15,620 nt of DNA, from IMG/VR virus record IMGVR_UViG_2663762841_000005. One strand, given 5' to 3'. The stretch comes from a virus. Its lineage: Duplodnaviria > Heunggongvirae > Uroviricota > Caudoviricetes. The notes under the pieces are model-generated. The model made no database searches. It was not told the origin of the DNA and was given only the letters and a program-made list of their open reading frames with translations. Position numbers and translations under genes: made by a program. The stretch's first letter is position 1. Each line of letters starts with the position of its first letter. Below, piece by piece: positions 2,826 through 11,332 of this stretch.

Positions 2826-3074
2826 ATGCGTATTGAAATCTGCATAGCCAAAGAAAAAATGACTAAAATGCCAACCGGTGCTGTGGATGCGTTAAAGGAA
2901 GAATTAACCCGACGCATCAGTAAACGTTATGACGATGTAGAAGTGATCGTAAAAGCCACCAGCAACGATGGCCTTTCTGTTACGCGCACCGCTGATAAAG
3001 ATTCAGCTAAAACTTTTGTTCAGGAGACTCTGAAAGATACCTGGGAGTCTGCTGACGAGTGGTTTGTTCATTAA
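2826..3074 (+). CDS. DinI-family DNA damage-inducible protein (prophage DinI homologue)
   Basis: 82-aa [14 protein letters not shown]...[11 protein letters not shown], with DinI-like length, N-terminus (MRIE..IAK) and C-terminal TWESAD-WF motif; preceded by a LexA box. Confidence 0.8.
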
Positions 3075-3106
3075 GTTCATCATCTCTGGACACCATTCAC
3101 TTGTAT

Positions 3107-3296: not shown

Positions 3297-3848
3297 ATGC
3301 ATGACAATATTTGGTTTACATATAAAGCACGTATCCAAGCGCACCATCGACTAGAATGGCTTGAAAAACACTCTCAATTTATCCTCGTTTGGTATGCTAT
3401 ATTGAGTGCGGTACTTTCAATTGTAACGTTGCGATTTCCAAAGGTTCTAGGAGATAATACAGATGTCGTTGCGGCGATACTTTCAGTGGCTCTACTGGGT
3501 ATTTCTCTGATCGTATCTAACCTAGATTTTCGTGGTCGAGCAATAGCCATGAGAAGGAATTATATTGCACTACAGCGACTCTATTTTGACATTACCACCA
3601 GTCAACAGTTATCTCTTGAACAGAAAGAAAAATATTTTAATTTGCTCAATGAGGTTGAGAATCACCGTGACATAGATGATAAAATTTCAAGGGTAACTCA
3701 AGTTGGACTTAAGACGAGGATCCCCACACAAAAAGAAAAAATAATTGTTATTTTATGGATATTACTTCGAATATTTATTACTGCCGCACTTTATATACTC
3801 CCATTAATATATCTTTGGATTGACTATGACTGCAAGCAGAATTTTTAA
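3297..3848 (+). CDS. Small multi-TM membrane protein (2 N-terminal TM helices plus a C-terminal hydrophobic segment); candidate effector of the RT module, possibly SLATT-like
   Basis: 183-aa ORF, AT-rich, SD AAGGA 7 nt before the ATG. Hydrophobic stretches FILVWYAILSAVLSIVTL, VVAAILSVALLGISLIVSNL and IIVILWILLRIFITAALYILPLIYLWI. Its 3' end overlaps the RT start by 29 nt, suggesting translational coupling. The SLATT assignment is a guess from architecture. Confidence 0.65.
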   Translation: MHDNIWFTYKARIQAHHRLEWLEKHSQFILVWYAILSAVLSIVTLRFPKVLGDNTDVVAAILSVALLGISLIVSNLDFRGRAIAMRRNYIALQRLYFDITTSQQLSLEQKEKYFNLLNEVENHRDIDDKISRVTQVGLKTRIPTQKEKIIVILWILLRIFITAALYILPLIYLWIDYDCKQNF

Positions 3849-5196
3849 AAAGTCATTCTCGAAAAAAAATCTTCTAAAAGTATACTCTGAAAAAATCAAA
3901 GAATCAGGAGCGATTGGCATAGATCGGATTCGCCCATCAAAACTTGATTTGACAATAAAAAATGAGATCACTTTCATTTTTGAAAAGGTTAATTCTGGCA
4001 ATTACAAATTTACAGCATATAAAGAAAAATTAATATCTAAAGGCGCTAACTCTACACCCAGACAGATTTCCATACCAACTGCTAGGGACAGAATTACTCT
4101 TAGAGCTCTCTGTGAATGCCTTACGGAAATATATCCTAAGTCCAGATTAAAACTACCACATACAGTAATTGACTCATTGAAAGAAGCATTAAACAACAGT
4201 CTATATGCTGAATATGCAAAAATAGATCTTAAAAGTTTCTATCCTTCAATTGAACATAAATTGATAATTAATGCAATAAAAAATAAAATTAGAAAAAAAG
4301 AAATTAGACAGTTAATAACATCATCATTAATCGTGCCTACTGTAAGTGGAACCACAGGAAGCAAAGGTATCCCTAATAATACCAGAGGAGTACCTCAGGG
4401 ATTAGCGATATCAAACATTTTAGCTGAAATATCACTATCTAATTTCGATGATGAAATCAATAAAATGCATGACATATGGTACATGCGATACGTTGATGAC
4501 ATTCTTATTTTAACACCAAAATATCAAGCAACAAAAATAGCTTCTCATATCATTGATAAGCTTCAATCATTAAATTTAAACCCACATCCATTAAATGAAG
4601 AGAACTCAAAATCCAAAGTAGGCAGTTTGGATGAAAGTTTTAACTTTTTGGGATACCACATAGAAAATCGAGAATTATTGATAAAACATGAGAGCATTCT
4701 TAGATTTGAGTCATCCTTAGCAAAAATTTTTACTGCATATAGGCACGCTCTACTACAAGCTAAAAGTAAGCGTGATAAAGAACGAGCTGTTGCATATTGT
4801 CAGTGGAAACTAAATCTCAGAATTACGGGATGTGTGTTTGAAGGTAAACGATTGGGATGGGTATCGTACTTCTCACAAATAACCTCAACAGCTCAACTTC
4901 GCTCTGTTAATCATACTATCAATAATCTTATCCGCCGATTCGGCCTTTCATCAGAAATAAAACCAAAATCTTTGATTAAAACTTTCTATGAACTCCGCAG
5001 AGGTAGAGCGGAGACTTTTAAATACATACCTAACTTTGACAATCTACATATATCTCAGAAACGAGAACTTGTTTCTATGTGGATAGGTAAAGAGAAGGAA
5101 AAAAAACTTAGCAATAGTGAAATAGAGAGGAAGTTTAAATTTAAAATTGCGAAATCAGTAAAAGAGCTTGAAGAGGATATTTCAGGAATATCATAG
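3820..5196 (+). CDS. Reverse transcriptase (prokaryotic retron/Abi/UG-type, defence-associated candidate)
   Basis: 458-aa ORF with canonical RT motifs: motif A IDLKSFYPSI (Asp about residue 136), motif B' GVPQGLAISNILAEISL (about 190-206), motif C YVDD (residues 224-227, nt 4489-4500), motif E-like FLGY, plus a C-terminal extension of roughly 170 aa. A possible retron-like NN..A and ITG (region-7 VTG-like) are present, but the spacing differs from Ec86, so the family call is tentative. Confidence 0.9.
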   Translation: MTMTASRIFKKSFSKKNLLKVYSEKIKESGAIGIDRIRPSKLDLTIKNEITFIFEKVNSGNYKFTAYKEKLISKGANSTPRQISIPTARDRITLRALCECLTEIYPKSRLKLPHTVIDSLKEALNNSLYAEYAKIDLKSFYPSIEHKLIINAIKNKIRKKEIRQLITSSLIVPTVSGTTGSKGIPNNTRGVPQGLAISNILAEISLSNFDDEINKMHDIWYMRYVDDILILTPKYQATKIASHIIDKLQSLNLNPHPLNEENSKSKVGSLDESFNFLGYHIENRELLIKHESILRFESSLAKIFTAYRHALLQAKSKRDKERAVAYCQWKLNLRITGCVFEGKRLGWVSYFSQITSTAQLRSVNHTINNLIRRFGLSSEIKPKSLIKTFYELRRGRAETFKYIPNFDNLHISQKRELVSMWIGKEKEKKLSNSEIERKFKFKIAKSVKELEEDISGIS

Positions 5197-5250: not shown

Positions 5251-5667
5251 TCACAAACCAGCCGCAGTATCCTGCCATGGCAAGTTGCTGCGGCTTTTTA
5301 TGTTCAACGGATCAACAGCCAGATCAGAAGACACGCTACCCACGTTGTAAACGAACGAGTAAAGAGCGCCGCGCGTTGTTTCCGGTATATCGACTTTGAT
5401 GTACGGGTTAATTTGTCTGGCGACCGTGGCAAGGTCTTTATTCAGGAGGGCTTTGCATTCTGCTTCGGTATACGTTTTACCTAGCATGATGTCTTTTCCG
5501 GTGTGTCCGTAACATACAGTCCATACGCCAACGATATCTTTGTATGGTATGTAGCTGACACCTTCCAGGCCATCGTCACCACTTGGGCCAGTGATTAACA
5601 CTGATGCTATAGCAATTGCTCCGCCACCAATAGCAGCAGCAACTGCTTTTCGTAATGATGGAGGCAT
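5251..5667 (-). CDS. SAR endolysin (phage 21 R-type, T4-lysozyme-fold glycoside hydrolase), apparently 3'-truncated at the junction with the RT cassette
   Basis: N-terminal signal-anchor [27 protein letters not shown] followed by the lysozyme catalytic region ([26 protein letters not shown]...[15 protein letters not shown]). After about residue 110 (nt about 5340) the sequence loses lysozyme character and reads through the plus-strand terminator before stopping; full-length homologues are about 165 aa by my recollection. Its start overlaps the holin stop. Confidence 0.75.
5260..5300 (+). terminator. Rho-independent terminator of the RT operon (AGCCGCAG ... CTGCGGCT stem, then TTTTTAT)
   Basis: 8-bp perfect inverted repeat at 5260-5267 / 5288-5295 enclosing a palindromic TGCCATGGCA core, followed by a T-run at 5295-5299; about 65 nt downstream of the RT stop. 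Confidence 0.6.
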
Positions 5668-7002: not shown

Positions 7003-7151
7003 GGATCAGTAAGCGTAACTCTGGTAGGCTCACTCTGCTTTTGCGCTAAAGCAGTGGGCCGTGGTTCGCTTGTGACCAGTAAGCATGAGCGAATGGCTGG
7101 CAGGTGCTACCAACACCCACCAGCCGCCCATTTTCACAAATTAAAAGTCCT

Positions 7152-7370
7152 TCATTGCTGAAGGCGTCTGTAACAGCCGAACTGGTAATCTGCCAGCCCC
7201 GCCATAACCAACTGGGTCAGTATTAACTGACAGCGTTCGCGTGAAAGATATGTGTTTTGTGCAATCTCCCCGACTGTTGCCGGTTCGATGCTTAATTCAT
7301 TAAAAACAACTTTCGCCGTTTCTGTCATATCTTGCTGTTTTAGCATGTCTTTTTTCCTTCTGGTTAACAT
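7152..7370 (-). CDS. Hypothetical small protein (72 aa)
   Basis: ORF only; basic N-terminus, possible helix-turn-helix-like segment (ATVGEIAQNTYLSRERCQLIL). No confident family assignment. Confidence 0.4.
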   Translation of the reverse strand: MLTRRKKDMLKQQDMTETAKVVFNELSIEPATVGEIAQNTYLSRERCQLILTQLVMAGLADYQFGCYRRLQQ

Positions 7371-7467
7371 GACATACCAATAACTCTTGTCTAAAAAGCC
7401 AGCAAGATAAAAAGTCAGTATTCACGACCACCAGCGTGTTTACCGTACTGCACCAGGTTTACAGGTA

Positions 7468-7494
7468 CAAAAAAACCCGCTCTACGGCGGGTTT
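7468..7494 (-). terminator. Rho-independent terminator on the minus strand (AAACCCGC / GCGGGTTT stem, 6-nt loop, U7 tract)
   Basis: On the minus strand the 8-bp stem (plus-strand 7473-7480 / 7487-7494) is followed by a run of seven T; possibly the lambdoid tR'-type terminator downstream of a late promoter remnant. Confidence 0.6.
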
Positions 7495-7592
7495 AAGCTG
7501 TGTGGCGAAGTAACCACTCTTAACAGATTATGATAGTTTTTGCGTACGCGTTAGTAATTTATTATGCTCTTTACAATTGTTAGCTTAACCGC

Positions 7593-8759
7593 ATGGAATT
7601 GACCAAAAAAATGAGCAAAGCAAGCATACGCCACGTAATCGTTCATGAGCTCTTAAAAGAATCTAATAAAGACTTCGATCACTCCAAACCATACAATCTT
7701 CGTGATACAGAACTAGATAAAACAAATGATATAGTAAAAAAATTAGTAGACGGTGTTATTGATTTGTATGGTTCAAAAGGGAACTCAGCGCATTATGGTG
7801 TTTTTATTAAAAATAAAACAAAGCAAGGCCCTATACCAGAACTATTTCATAAATACTCTTTAGTTCAACAATCTGTTTCAAGTGATTTCATTGAATTATC
7901 GAAGGAAGTTATGAAACAAATGTATAAATCTGCTCAAGAGCAGATTTGGGCTTCTGGAGGATATGTTGTTTTTACTGATTATATTTTATCTGGTTTCCGT
8001 TATCTATTGGTTACAATGATCAAAAAAACTAATGGCGTAACTATTAGTGAAAATTTAGAGCCAGAGGAAATGATTCACTTAGAACTTGGTAATATTAACC
8101 AAGCAGCAAAAATAAATTTCAGATATTATGAAGAATACCAAAAAGCAGATGACTTAAAAAAAACAGACTTAAGTTATCTAAGCTTTATAAGCAAAACTAC
8201 GGGACAGTCAGCGGCAGCATATTTTATAGCAGCATTAGGATGTGACAAGGGGATTGCTTCAGCAGGTGCAACCCGTAAGTTACCAGATGAAATAAGGCGT
8301 TTCTTTAAGAAAGAACCTCTTTTAAAAAATCAAGCAGAGTCATTTAGAAATGATGTTATCAAATACTTAGAAAAGCAATTTGACAACGAGCACTCTGCAA
8401 GGCTTTCTGATATCGAATCGCTTGCTTCAGGCCATATGTCCTATTTAAAAGAGGAAGAAAAAACAGAACTTGTTGATAAATTAATGAAACACCTCAATAG
8501 TGAGGAAGTCAGAATCCCATCAGAGTTCGTAATCAATAAAAACTCCTTAGATAAAATCAGCAATGTGATATATAAAACCCCATCATTGAGCTTTCACTTC
8601 GACAAGGATTTACTCGGTGTCACAACTGATGCTAAAATATATTATGATGACGAAAACCAAAGCCTAACATTTAATAATTTGCCTGTTGAAGCATTAACTA
8701 AGATAAGAAGAGCGTTGAAAGAAACTGATAACCCAAGTAATGAAGAAGATAAAGAATGA
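7593..8759 (+). CDS. Nucleoid-associated protein NdpA/YejK-family homologue (divergent, AT-rich)
   Basis: 388-aa ORF with YejK-like blocks: IRHVIVHELLK near the N-terminus, GGYVVFTDYILSGFRYLLVTMIKKTNGVTISENLEPEEMIHLELGNINQAAKIN, and YLSFISKTTGQSAAAYFIAALGCDKG. The probable true start is the ATG at 7611 (MSKASIRHV...), which aligns with the YejK N-terminus; 7593 is the longest ORF. Its stop overlaps the start of the next gene (ATGA). Confidence 0.75.
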   Translation: MELTKKMSKASIRHVIVHELLKESNKDFDHSKPYNLRDTELDKTNDIVKKLVDGVIDLYGSKGNSAHYGVFIKNKTKQGPIPELFHKYSLVQQSVSSDFIELSKEVMKQMYKSAQEQIWASGGYVVFTDYILSGFRYLLVTMIKKTNGVTISENLEPEEMIHLELGNINQAAKINFRYYEEYQKADDLKKTDLSYLSFISKTTGQSAAAYFIAALGCDKGIASAGATRKLPDEIRRFFKKEPLLKNQAESFRNDVIKYLEKQFDNEHSARLSDIESLASGHMSYLKEEEKTELVDKLMKHLNSEEVRIPSEFVINKNSLDKISNVIYKTPSLSFHFDKDLLGVTTDAKIYYDDENQSLTFNNLPVEALTKIRRALKETDNPSNEEDKE

Positions 8760-9982
8760 ATGATTTTAGTATAATAGTTAATCTGTATAGATTATCAAGC
8801 TATCCTCATTTTGACGGGGCTAAGTTTTCTGCGCGTATAGCTTATAATGCAGACGTAAAATCATTGTTCAAAAGAATTTTGAACCCTACTTTTCAAGCTG
8901 GTACAGCTGACGAAATAGAGGTGGATGGTCATTTAATTTATGATTATGAAGACTTTCCTGAAAAGGGAAATTTTCTTACATACTCGTTTAAAATTTCACA
9001 AGGAAGTGCGAATCGTTTTTATAAAAATAAAAACGAGTTTGTAAAAATAAACACGCTCAAGAAAGGCATAATGCCAGAGTATTTCTATATTATAGAGGAT
9101 GATTTCTATTCATTAGAAACACCAAAACCTTCTTATATCCAAAAAATTGAGGACATTTGTGAGCTAATCAATGCTCTTTCCATGCTTGCTCATTTCCATG
9201 ATATAAAAAAAGATAGCAAAGGTACATTTTATCGTTTAGTCTTTATTTTAAACTCAGAGTCTAAATCTTCTTCTGCTGTAATTGAAACAAATATTACAGA
9301 AGAAATTTTTAATGATAAAACAGTAAATACTCAGTTAGTTAAAACATTAGTAAGTAGTGAAGCTACTACTGATGCCCATCACATTGAAAAGATTAACACT
9401 TTCAGAAACACAGTTATTGAGTATGTTAATAAAAATGGAAATTCCTTTGTCGAGTTAATTAACAAGTGGGATTTCATATGCGAACTTTATACGAACAACT
9501 TAGCTGCTTATATGTCGGCATTTTCTTTTCATAAAGCAAGGAAAGAAGTTGTTGATGCTGAACTCGATTACTCAGAAAAACTGTCAAAAATAATTTCAGA
9601 AATTTCTAACAAAGCTCTTGCAATACCTATTTCACTAGCTGGTTCAATTGCTATTTTCAAATTAACAACAAAAGCTGATTGGATTATTGCTTTAATTGGA
9701 TTGATTATCACAGCAATAATAACATCTGCAATGATTGTGTCACAAAAAAAACAACTTGCTCGTATTTCACACTCTAAAGAAATACTTTTTGGACAATTAA
9801 GATATAGAATAAAGGATGACACCAGCGATCTTAAAGAGAGCTTAGAAGAGGCTATTAAAAAATTAAATGACAATGAGGATTTTTGTCATAAGGTGCTTGA
9901 CAGTTTATTATCACTAGCATGGATGCCTACATTCATAGGCATCATCGGTATTTTATTTAAATTAATGCCAAATATTACTTGA
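8756..9982 (+). CDS. Hypothetical protein with soluble N-terminal domain and three C-terminal TM helices; candidate membrane effector partner of the NdpA-like protein
   Basis: 408-aa ORF, AT-rich, translationally coupled to the upstream gene (4-bp overlap). Predicted TM segments at about residues 287-302, 309-327 and 383-403 (nt about 9614-9964). No recognisable catalytic motifs. Its 3' end overlaps the 3' end of the convergent Q gene by 8 bp. Confidence 0.7.
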   Translation: MNDFSIIVNLYRLSSYPHFDGAKFSARIAYNADVKSLFKRILNPTFQAGTADEIEVDGHLIYDYEDFPEKGNFLTYSFKISQGSANRFYKNKNEFVKINTLKKGIMPEYFYIIEDDFYSLETPKPSYIQKIEDICELINALSMLAHFHDIKKDSKGTFYRLVFILNSESKSSSAVIETNITEEIFNDKTVNTQLVKTLVSSEATTDAHHIEKINTFRNTVIEYVNKNGNSFVELINKWDFICELYTNNLAAYMSAFSFHKARKEVVDAELDYSEKLSKIISEISNKALAIPISLAGSIAIFKLTTKADWIIALIGLIITAIITSAMIVSQKKQLARISHSKEILFGQLRYRIKDDTSDLKESLEEAIKKLNDNEDFCHKVLDSLLSLAWMPTFIGIIGILFKLMPNIT

Positions 9983-10334
9983 GCATGTACATAACCCCAT
10001 TAATGAAACCTAACGCAGTCTGCAATTGCTTCCGGATTGTTCCATCTGAGCATCTGCGTCTCTTCGCAATAGAACGCAGTGAAATACCTATAACGAAGTG
10101 AGCAATGATCAGCTCATATTCGTCTGGTTTATACTTACACAGGCGGGCAACACAGCCGTCTATCATGATGCCTTCATCATCATCACACTGAAGGCGTATT
10201 TTTTTACCATGAGGTAAAAGCCCCTTAAAGCCTGCTGCTATCGGCTGCCAGTCCACACCACTGTTATCTGCTGCAGCCCACGCTCCCCAGCGGTCTAAAA
10301 CTTCATACATATCACGCATCAACTTTCTCCACAA
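9975..10334 (-). CDS. Lambdoid antitermination protein Q (phage 82/21-type, QuuD-like)
   Basis: 119-aa product with LDRWGAWAA, IAAGFKGL, QCDDDEGIMIDGCVARL and CSDGTIRKQL blocks, matching the small Q-family antiterminators as I recall them. Confidence 0.8.
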   Translation of the reverse strand: MWRKLMRDMYEVLDRWGAWAAADNSGVDWQPIAAGFKGLLPHGKKIRLQCDDDEGIMIDGCVARLCKYKPDEYELIIAHFVIGISLRSIAKRRRCSDGTIRKQLQTALGFINGVMYMLK

Positions 10335-10336
10335 AA

Positions 10337-11332
10337 TCAGGCCAGCACGCCAATTGCCAGCGCACGATCGATAAAACGAAATATCAGCTCCAGCTGGGAG
10401 CCATACTTCTCTTCAAATGCCACGGTATCCGCATGCAGCTCGTCGTGATGCTTTCTGCACAAAGGCAACACAAAAAGGTCATGCGCTTTTGTTCCCATTC
10501 CACCCTGACCGTGACCTATCAGGTGGTGGGGATCATCAGCGGGCTTTCCACAACATGCACACGGCTGTGTCTTAACCCAGCGCGTGTACTTTTCATTAAC
10601 CCAGCGGCGACGTTTGGGGCGTAACATAAAAGACTCCGGCGACTCCGGATCCACTTTCAGCGCCAGCACCTTTTTCGCCTTATCCTGGATGATGCTGGTG
10701 GCAGGAACCGAAGGCACAAGGTCACTTTCCCGGGTAACAGACGGCACAACAGGCTTCGGTAATCTCAGTGCCTTACGGGCTGCACTTTCCGGTAAGGCAT
10801 CCGCCAGATCATTACGAATCAGCCACCAGCACAGTTCCGGCATTGTCACAACGTGACTGTCATCAAAACCGAGATCCCGACGCACAACAGACAACACCCA
10901 GCGGGCACAGTTATCCGTTGCCATTGATTCCAGCCGTTCCGTGAACTGATCGCGCAGCTGGTTATCGCAGTGCCAGCACAGACGGATTGCACCCGGAGCG
11001 TGTCGCATTGTGGTCATGTTCTCGCTGTGCCAGTCGGAATGAGGCCACTGGCAGCCTTTTTCACGAAGTAACCAGCTTTCAAGACATTCCACGCCACCAG
11101 CACGACGGATCACTGCCTCATTGCGGAACACGGCCCGAACGGCAGGATCATCCGCCAGCGGTTGTGATGCCGCCGGAACGGCACCACTGGCGAAAGATGA
11201 ATAACGCTCCGGCTCAGGCTCCAGCAGGACACGCCCCTGCATAAACAGGGGCATCAACTCTGAACCTGGCCTGAACAATACGATCCCCATACGCGGGGCA
11301 ATTTCAGGGGTCAGTAGTGCTCTCACGGTCAC
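10337..11332 (-). CDS. Phage protein, DUF968-like with C-terminal HNH/zinc-finger-like motif
   Basis: 331-aa ORF; the C-terminal CACCGKPADDPHHLIGHGQGG...CRKHHDELH cluster resembles HNH-type metal-binding motifs; position in the nin-like region upstream of Q. Confidence 0.65.
   Translation of the reverse strand: MTVRALLTPEIAPRMGIVLFRPGSELMPLFMQGRVLLEPEPERYSSFASGAVPAASQPLADDPAVRAVFRNEAVIRRAGGVECLESWLLREKGCQWPHSDWHSENMTTMRHAPGAIRLCWHCDNQLRDQFTERLESMATDNCARWVLSVVRRDLGFDDSHVVTMPELCWWLIRNDLADALPESAARKALRLPKPVVPSVTRESDLVPSVPATSIIQDKAKKVLALKVDPESPESFMLRPKRRRWVNEKYTRWVKTQPCACCGKPADDPHHLIGHGQGGMGTKAHDLFVLPLCRKHHDELHADTVAFEEKYGSQLELIFRFIDRALAIGVLA

Follow-up and report, generated by a model that had tools for sequence, protein, structure and literature searches.

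The question raised by the locus described here is what two AT-rich genes, embedded antisense among the genes of a degraded lambdoid prophage, contribute to the prophage or to the bacterium that carries it. The stretch analysed (hereafter the window) comprises 15,620 nucleotides of the IMG/VR virus record IMGVR_UViG_2663762841_000005. Its DNA is that of Escherichia coli, with positions 7400-10100 being 100% identical to strain AR434 and to eleven further complete genomes, and it contains dusA together with an integrase that targets this gene and, inserted there, a degraded lambdoid prophage. The cassette in question consists of two overlapping plus-strand open reading frames (ORFs), gene 1 (7593-8759, 388 amino acids) and gene 2 (8756-9982, 408 amino acids). 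An earlier reading of this DNA, made without database searches (the sequence-only reading), had taken the pair for a DNA-associated sensor and a membrane effector forming an abortive-infection system carried by the prophage as a moron. Homology and position strongly support this proposal, the function itself being assigned by analogy: the pair probably constitutes an abortive-infection system akin to DS-1 and Type II PANGU and carried by a prophage, since its two proteins are homologues of those of the validated DS-1 system, share the Type II PANGU architecture, occupy the same prophage slot and are conserved as a pair.

The two genes and their relation to DS-1 and Type II PANGU

DS-1 (working ID D390; WP_000355468.1 and WP_000150292.1) is a validated anti-phage system from the DefensePredictor study of DeWeirdt et al. 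(bioRxiv 2025.01.08.631726; Science 2026; PMC13092281) and was described as the first use of a YejK domain in defence (PMC13092281). In the screen of this system, the -log efficiency of plating was 7.6 for Bas1, 2.7 for Bas26 and 1.7 for both Bas3 and T3 (PMC13092281). Type II PANGU, reported in the preprint of Li et al. (bioRxiv 10.64898/2026.04.06.716658), is a bicistronic system which couples a YejK-like nucleoid-associated protein (NAP), Pag2A, to a transmembrane (TM) effector, Pag2B, with an acidic N-terminal NAP-binding 'DMK' domain. The products of both window genes match the paired NCBIfam models DS1_1_antiphage (NF053868) and DS1_2_antiphage (NF053869) at E values of about 1e-28 (1.7e-28 for gene 2), with the alignments spanning model positions 78-367 of 369 for gene 1 and 31-336 of 337 for gene 2. 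BLASTP detects DS-1A and DS-1B at 24% identity each (E=1e-10 and 2e-10), a hidden Markov model of the gene 2 family matches DS-1B at E=1.9e-20, and hhalign relates the same family to DS-1B with 96.6% probability over the soluble domain and the first TM helix (TM1). As both proteins are homologous over most of their length yet score far below the equivalog cut-offs, sequence comparison places the window pair on a distant branch of the DS-1-like / Type II PANGU superfamily and not among the DS-1 equivalogs. The match to an already described system, which the sequence-only reading had named as an outcome that would speak against it, is thus present at the family level and stops short of equivalog status. 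Its statement that no defence system is built on an NdpA-family protein is outdated, as DS-1 (preprint January 2025) and PANGU are exactly such systems; a search of the literature found no NA37-based defence beyond these two. The pair is a divergent relative of DS-1 and Type II PANGU and the idea of NAP-based defence is itself no longer new; the earlier inference was correct in kind, and before 2025 it would have been a discovery.

The two genes overlap by 4 bp (ATGA at 8756-8759, read directly), while the 3' end of gene 2 (stop codon TGA, 9980-9982) overlaps that of the convergent antiterminator gene Q (stop codon TAA on the minus strand, 9977-9975, likewise read directly) by 8 bp. The guanine-plus-cytosine (GC) fraction of the pair is 0.319 versus 0.472 in the remaining window, and in nine of nine other hosts the pair is likewise richer in AT than its own flanks. 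ORF calls, direct reading and base composition agree with the earlier description of two plus-strand ORFs, an ATGA overlap and AT-richness, and the antisense placement in a minus-strand lambdoid region with a 3' overlap with Q at 9975-9982 was borne out as well.

Gene 1 (7593..8759, plus strand) codes for an NA37/YejK-family NAP, the presumed sensor, on the evidence of Pfam, PHROG, NCBIfam, PDB and RefSeq. The Pfam NA37 model (PF04245) is matched along its full length (model positions 1-321 of 325; E=5e-50; 171.2 bits against a cut-off of 24.6), which confirms the YejK/NdpA-like blocks noticed earlier, and further matches are to PHROG 3767 (E=7e-98) and the YejK structure 9BE2 of the PDB (E=4e-15). 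According to Pfam the protein is a plain full-length NA37 protein with no extra domain; a SieB match (Pfam, E=0.14) was dismissed as noise. Since the NCBIfam YejK equivalog model (NF001557) is matched with 132 bits, under its cut-off of 341, the sequence classes gene 1 as a YejK paralogue and not as YejK itself. Its true start is probably the ATG at 7611, giving a protein of 382 amino acids, because RefSeq WP_120130707.1 uses this start and most homologues (for example, those in 8 of 11 genome loci) align from residue 7.

Gene 2 (8756..9982, plus strand) codes for the 408-residue membrane effector (RefSeq WP_046657265.1), identified as a DS-1B homologue and as Pag2B-like from NCBIfam, hhalign, PHROG 5023 and AlphaFold. 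In the AlphaFold model (predicted local distance difference test score, pLDDT, 86.6), residues 1-205 (8756..9370) form an acidic cytoplasmic alpha/beta domain, the presumed NAP-binding equivalent of 'DMK'. Residues 206-286 (9371..9613), delimited by predicted secondary structure and conservation, are helical and include a juxtamembrane helix of about 50 residues (238-287), while residues 287-408 (9614..9979) comprise a TM1-TM2 hairpin (~287-328), about 55 residues of cytoplasmic helix and the C-terminal TM3 (~384-404). Hydropathy agrees with the model in placing hydrophobic segments at 287-331 (two helices) and 381-405, the predicted topology follows the positive-inside rule with the N-terminal domain in the cytoplasm, and the layout of a soluble part followed by three TM helices recognised in the sequence-only reading therefore holds, with the soluble part extending to residue 286. 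The juxtamembrane helix and TM1 are the best-conserved part of the family (per-block conservation of 0.72-0.80 over residues 241-300), the motifs NTFRNT.IEY and NNLA.YMSAFSFHKARKE of the juxtamembrane region contain invariant columns, and the region of residues 206-286 aligns to DS-1B. The N-terminal domain (residues 1-205) is acidic in 29 of 29 family members, and a search for a structural relative of it detected none. Pfam returned only insignificant matches for gene 2 (DUF4456, ATP-synt_ab_C and DSHCT) and assigns it to no family.

Conservation of the pair and a proposed mechanism

An exhaustive profile search with gene 2 yielded 998 representatives at 50% clustering, nearly all of which are 400-430 amino acids long and align end to end; 198 were found at E<=1e-30. 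The close family forms 59 clusters at 90% identity, where all named members belong to the Enterobacterales and all are annotated as 'hypothetical'. The gene immediately preceding the gene 2 homologue codes for an NA37 protein in 11 of 11 genome loci of species representatives (including Shigella, Ewingella, Pantoea, Xenorhabdus, Pectobacterium, Providencia and Proteus), 47 of 48 viral-contig loci and four of four distant representatives, so that pairing over the scored genome and viral loci stands at 58 of 59. Pairing in the superfamily was defined by a NAP gene lying directly upstream of the effector gene with a gap of <40 bp; the window genes overlap by 4 bp. The identities of gene 1 and gene 2 co-vary across loci (r=0.93), and the conserved co-occurrence that had been put forward as a check on the earlier proposal is thus evident from both counts and co-divergence. 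Among deposited phages a single relative of the pair was found, in Klebsiella phage P7641. In the distant representative L022 the pair is situated beside a Gabija-like ATPase, a UvrD helicase and an integrase. A further distant NA37 and effector pair (L023 3882-6254) lies in an apparent polysaccharide-biosynthesis cluster with glycosyltransferases, a flippase, an epimerase and a sulfotransferase; this is not a prophage, and the setting is unusual for a defence pair.

The same data bear on the view that the cassette is a toxin-antitoxin (TA) or addiction module, or inert and decaying cargo of a dead prophage. The prophage is degraded, with fragments of tail and portal pseudogenes in AR434, pseudogenised or disrupted copies of the pair exist elsewhere, and a membrane protein with a binding partner is superficially TA-like. 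Both ORFs of the window allele are, however, intact and >=99.5% identical in 30 of 5426 complete E. coli genomes, proteins identical to that of gene 2 were found on 508 contigs from Escherichia, Shigella, Salmonella and Citrobacter, and both proteins remain full length down to 33-42% identity. The PANGU constructs were moreover non-toxic, whether either gene was present alone or both together (10.64898/2026.04.06.716658), which argues against a classical TA module. A module of this type, or an inert remnant, is considered very improbable indeed.

The mechanism proposed for an abortive-infection system is modelled on the homologues, for which defence has been established by others (PMC13092281; 10.64898/2026.04.06.716658). 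Type II PANGU acts by abortive infection and needs its two genes together; T4 escapes it via mutations in denA (EndoII), the NAP leaves the nucleoid upon infection, and this NAP binds the N-terminal domain of the effector with nanomolar affinity (dissociation constant, KD, 19 nM) (10.64898/2026.04.06.716658). To the anatomy of the window pair, the homology of its proteins to DS-1A and DS-1B, their pairing and co-divergence and the shared slot, all of which are established here, defence activity, the trigger and killing through membrane damage would be added by analogy. In the uninfected cell, the gene 1 protein would be held on the chromosome, apart from the membrane-anchored gene 2 effector, until an infecting phage degrades host DNA and so releases it. 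The freed NAP would bind the effector at its acidic N-terminal domain in the cytoplasm, and this binding, transmitted via the conserved juxtamembrane helix, would switch on the three-TM module, which would damage the membrane such that the infected cell makes no phage. The cassette would be expressed in the lysogen from its own promoter, sitting in a swappable slot between Q and the late promoter. Sensing of topology or of topoisomerase IV/gyrase, as had been suggested earlier, was dropped for want of any supporting feature, the published trigger being NAP release when phage nucleases degrade host DNA.

Further support was drawn from the DefensePredictor results, where WP_120130707.1 (gene 1) is among the Table S10 entries labelled 'predicted novel defense gene', with a log-odds of 10.3, and from the presence of a SLATT and UG17 pair 2.4 kb away, which is described below. 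A second entry of Table S10, WP_016159279.1 (408 amino acids, log-odds 13.0), is probably gene 2, given its equal length and an accession adjacent to that of the flanking Q protein, WP_016159280.1. The DefensePredictor tables of cloned systems list neither gene 1 nor this presumed gene 2 entry.

Several observations weigh against an abortive-infection function of this kind. The DS-1 equivalog scores are short of the cut-offs for both proteins (97.9 bits against 330 for gene 1 and 99.8 against 315 for gene 2), and an identity of ~24% to DS-1 leaves room for a shifted function. A PADLOC v2.0 scan gave no significant model for either protein (gene 1 DrmC, E=0.046 only; gene 2 none), which is attributed to the library being older than the DS-1 and PANGU papers. 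The N-terminal domain in the window is only mildly acidic (net charge -5, isoelectric point 5.4) and far from classic DNA mimics, which leaves the 'DNA-mimic' step weak for this pair, and whole-chain fold matches of gene 2 to CorA and ClyA were rejected as generic helical-bundle resemblance. Frameshifted pseudogene copies occur in Shigella flexneri and in a Pantoea insect symbiont (L005 and L012), the insertion sequence IS1 is inserted within the pair in genome H13 (NZ_CP059947.1), and the host prophage is degraded. For the Type II effector no killing mechanism has been described, PANGU-Ecu included (10.64898/2026.04.06.716658), and no experiment on the subfamily of the window pair was found in the accessible literature.

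Some of these points would suit a system of the same family and with a genuine defence function, in which the trigger is not the loss of host DNA (but, for example, incoming phage DNA, a protein of the phage or altered topology) or the output is different (superinfection exclusion, with DNA entry or assembly blocked at the membrane and no killing of the cell). The divergence from DS-1 is deep at 24% identity, the DS-1 range (Bas1, Bas26 and T3) is unlike the T4 range reported for PANGU-Ecu, the N-terminal domain is only mildly acidic and no mechanism has been described for the effector. T1 and T5, although they degrade host DNA, resisted both PANGU systems studied (10.64898/2026.04.06.716658), and this, together with the differing ranges, indicates that the triggers are not simply any DNA degradation. 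The sole mechanistic dataset for Type II systems nevertheless points to denA-dependent triggering and NAP release, and no other sensor domain is indicated by the sequence, gene 1 being a plain NA37 protein. A different trigger or output is thus regarded as rather unlikely, and release of the NAP followed by activation of the effector as the preferred course of events.

A probable cargo slot between Q and its presumed late promoter

The right boundary of the slot occupied by the pair is the antiterminator gene Q (9975..10334, minus strand), whose product is distantly Q21-like (PHROG 79, E=9e-46; PDB Q21, E=0.004). At the left boundary, ~2.4 kb from Q with the cargo between them, there is a block (7495..7560) which, from a 10-locus alignment and its position, is the probable Q-dependent late promoter region when read on the minus strand. 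Just downstream of it in the direction of late transcription lies a tR'-like intrinsic terminator (7473..7494, minus strand), recognised in a terminator scan by an 8-bp stem followed by a T-run and from its folded structure, the hairpin of which is kept by compensatory changes across loci. The block ends in a 16-nt motif, TTTTGCGTACGCGTTA (7538-7553), with the palindromic core GCGTACGC, and in the 10-locus alignment it is almost invariant from Escherichia to Proteus while the proteins have diverged to 33-68% identity. It is found at the same boundary in related prophages with unrelated cargo, homology to such prophages ends at 7554-7560 and resumes at 9993-10113, and 365 deposited phages carry it, of which about 200 are Shiga toxin (Stx)-converting; on these sequence grounds it is a backbone element of the phage rather than part of the pair. 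In SfII the block is directly upstream of the holin S/R/Rz genes and in an Stx2a phage it is upstream of a methyltransferase gene, tRNAs and stx2AB, a different two-gene antisense cargo being located between the block and Q in both phages. No annotation of the block was found in the records examined. Judging from position, the block and terminator are most likely the Q-dependent late promoter (pR') and its terminator, and the gap from Q to pR' a general cargo slot. The description of the pair as inserted 'after Q' in the sequence-only reading is correct as to the convergent orientation; the actual position is between Q and the conserved block that probably holds the late promoter and terminator of Q.

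The convergent Q gene abuts or overlaps the 3' end of the effector gene in 10 of 11 genome loci and 48 of 48 viral loci. The DS-1 loci contain a Q that is 83-87% identical, with an overlap of 21-30 bp in 32 of 36 and the identical motif in 33 of 36. In Pectobacterium jejuense (L007 4050-12927), the pair and the invariant upstream motif are present, Q was not detected, and the pair shares its strand with the genes that flank it, for a primase-helicase of the D5 type and a protein with an SLT domain; from its sequence context, the pair is considered to have moved, along with the motif, into a different kind of mobile element.

So tight and ancient a linkage with Q could mean that the cassette mainly regulates its own prophage, with convergent transcription damping Q and stabilising lysogeny, or with the NAP silencing prophage or foreign DNA, and that any anti-phage effect is secondary. 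The 3' ends abut or overlap almost throughout, the terminator scan detected no plus-strand terminator after gene 2, where the 8-bp overlap with Q occurs, and the slot is situated between Q and its probable target promoter. Unrelated cargos, however, occupy the same slot in related phages, and the linkage is therefore a property of the slot rather than of the pair. Pairs without Q also exist, next to the D5-type primase in L007, the Gabija-like genes and integrase in L022 and the polysaccharide cluster in L023, and DS-1 defends when cloned away from Q. Regulation of the prophage is accordingly an improbable main role, and defence is retained as the probable one.

The block may in addition supply the -35 element (TTGCGT) of a cargo promoter; the proposed promoter, TTGCGT-17-TATGCT, is a weak match read by eye, and a consensus sigma-70 scan of the 7371-7592 gap returned no site. 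An Rfam search of 7100-10400 gave nothing meaningful. The K-12 prophage DLP12 has the same layout (quuD, antisense nmpC and essD); it was searched as a possible carrier of the invariant motif, which is absent from it, and only the layout is shared.

Other cargos antisense to Q were located in the slot of five loci, namely L014 (3230-4957, with the block at 2981-3068), L015 (3469-4930, block at ~3330-3410), L016 (747-2208, block at ~610-694), L108 (4133-5696, Stx2a_WGPS2_26/27, block at 4001-4085) and L109 (3135-4749, SfII_49/50, block at 3001-3083). They include one TIGR04255-family protein with two hypothetical proteins and several pairs of hypothetical proteins (~310-340 and ~180-195 amino acids). 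The L014 and L015 cargos have no match in PADLOC v2 or NCBIfam, save TIGR04255, and those of L015 have none in Pfam. These operons are candidates for unrecognised defence or moron cargos, some of which adjoin stx promoters. In strain WAT, an IS21 element splits Q (L016 2221-5207). It is quite possible, if somewhat short of an even chance, that the gap between Q and the late promoter, bounded by the invariant backbone motif, is a dedicated defence slot in the widespread lambdoid lineage that includes SfII and the Stx1 and Stx2 phages, that NAP-TM systems have diversified in it into at least two alleles, DS-1 and that of the window (24% identical), as orthogonal pairs with different phage ranges, that the other cargos are unrecognised defence systems, and that the N-terminal domain of gene 2 is a new NAP-capturing fold. 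The slot offers a practical place to seek further prophage defence, including in Shiga-toxin phages, where the cargo adjoins the toxin-driving promoter.

A second AT-rich island (window 3297-5196, plus strand; GC 0.34) directly follows the dusA-type integrase and a DinI-like gene. It encodes a SLATT protein (PADLOC RTasSLATT, E=1.5e-56), the ORF of which overlaps the gene for a 458-residue reverse transcriptase (PADLOC RT_UG17, E=1.2e-158). From these matches, SLATT and UG17 are classed as a DRT-class pair, and the prophage thus bears two defence-type cargos ~2.4 kb apart. In the AR434 prophage (L001 6534-10206), annotation shows the tail and portal genes as fragmentary pseudogenes, with both cargo islands intact. 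On the minus strand of the window, the pair is flanked by Q, a DUF968/HNH-like gene, KilA-N, a gene for a DNA methyltransferase and lysis genes. At 5251-5667 (minus strand), the window of this degraded prophage has just an endolysin-like fragment and one short ORF resembling a holin.

Comparison with known systems

NAP-based immunity, where a chromosome-bound protein acts as the sentinel of genome destruction, is a very recent concept, and a second allele in the slot of DS-1 that is 24% identical to it offers a comparison which could reveal the residues that determine the phage range and the specificity between sensor and effector. Residues shared by the two alleles, located in the juxtamembrane helix and TM1, hint at where the activation switch lies. 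The N-terminal domain, with no detectable structural relative, remains of interest.

With DS-1, the window pair shares the order of a YejK/NA37 gene followed by a gene for a protein of ~400 amino acids in which a soluble N-terminal domain precedes three TM helices at the C-terminus, as well as the prophage slot, the convergent and overlapping Q (83-87% identical) and the identical upstream motif. Both are E. coli prophage cargo, DS-1 being present in 106 of 5426 complete genomes and the window allele in 30 of the same set. They differ in that DS-1A has an additional N-terminal zinc-ribbon of ~40 residues (NinF-like), which gene 1 lacks, and in that the DS-1 genes are 2 bp apart whereas those of the window overlap by 4 bp; DS-1 was challenged with phages by its authors, while the window allele is known here from its sequence. 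In the five complete E. coli genomes listed (H82-H86, of 106), the RefSeq labels of the DS-1 proteins are 'hypothetical protein' and 'nucleoid-associated protein'. These labels are generic despite the NCBIfam anti-phage models, and annotation alone thus reveals neither allele.

Type II PANGU likewise consists of a bicistronic NAP and effector, the latter with an N-terminal domain and a C-terminal TM domain as in the window pair, and its relatives are linked to Gabija-like genes (10.64898/2026.04.06.716658), as is the case for a relative of the pair. The N-terminal domain of the window protein is by contrast only mildly acidic, and the comparison is one of architecture, not of PANGU-Ecu sequence; the window pair may in fact be the already tested PANGU-Ecu of uropathogenic E. 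coli. Type I PANGU (Pag1A and the GRel toxSAS Pag1B) has in common with the pair an NA37 sensor, the NAP freed by genome degradation binding an acidic effector domain, but its effector is a soluble alarmone synthetase rather than a membrane protein and shows no sequence relation to gene 2. The host YejK/NdpA protein (PDB 9BE2) belongs to the same Pfam family, which gene 1 matches over its full length. It is, however, the product of a stand-alone chromosomal housekeeping gene, whereas gene 1 is AT-rich, prophage-borne and translationally coupled to its effector.

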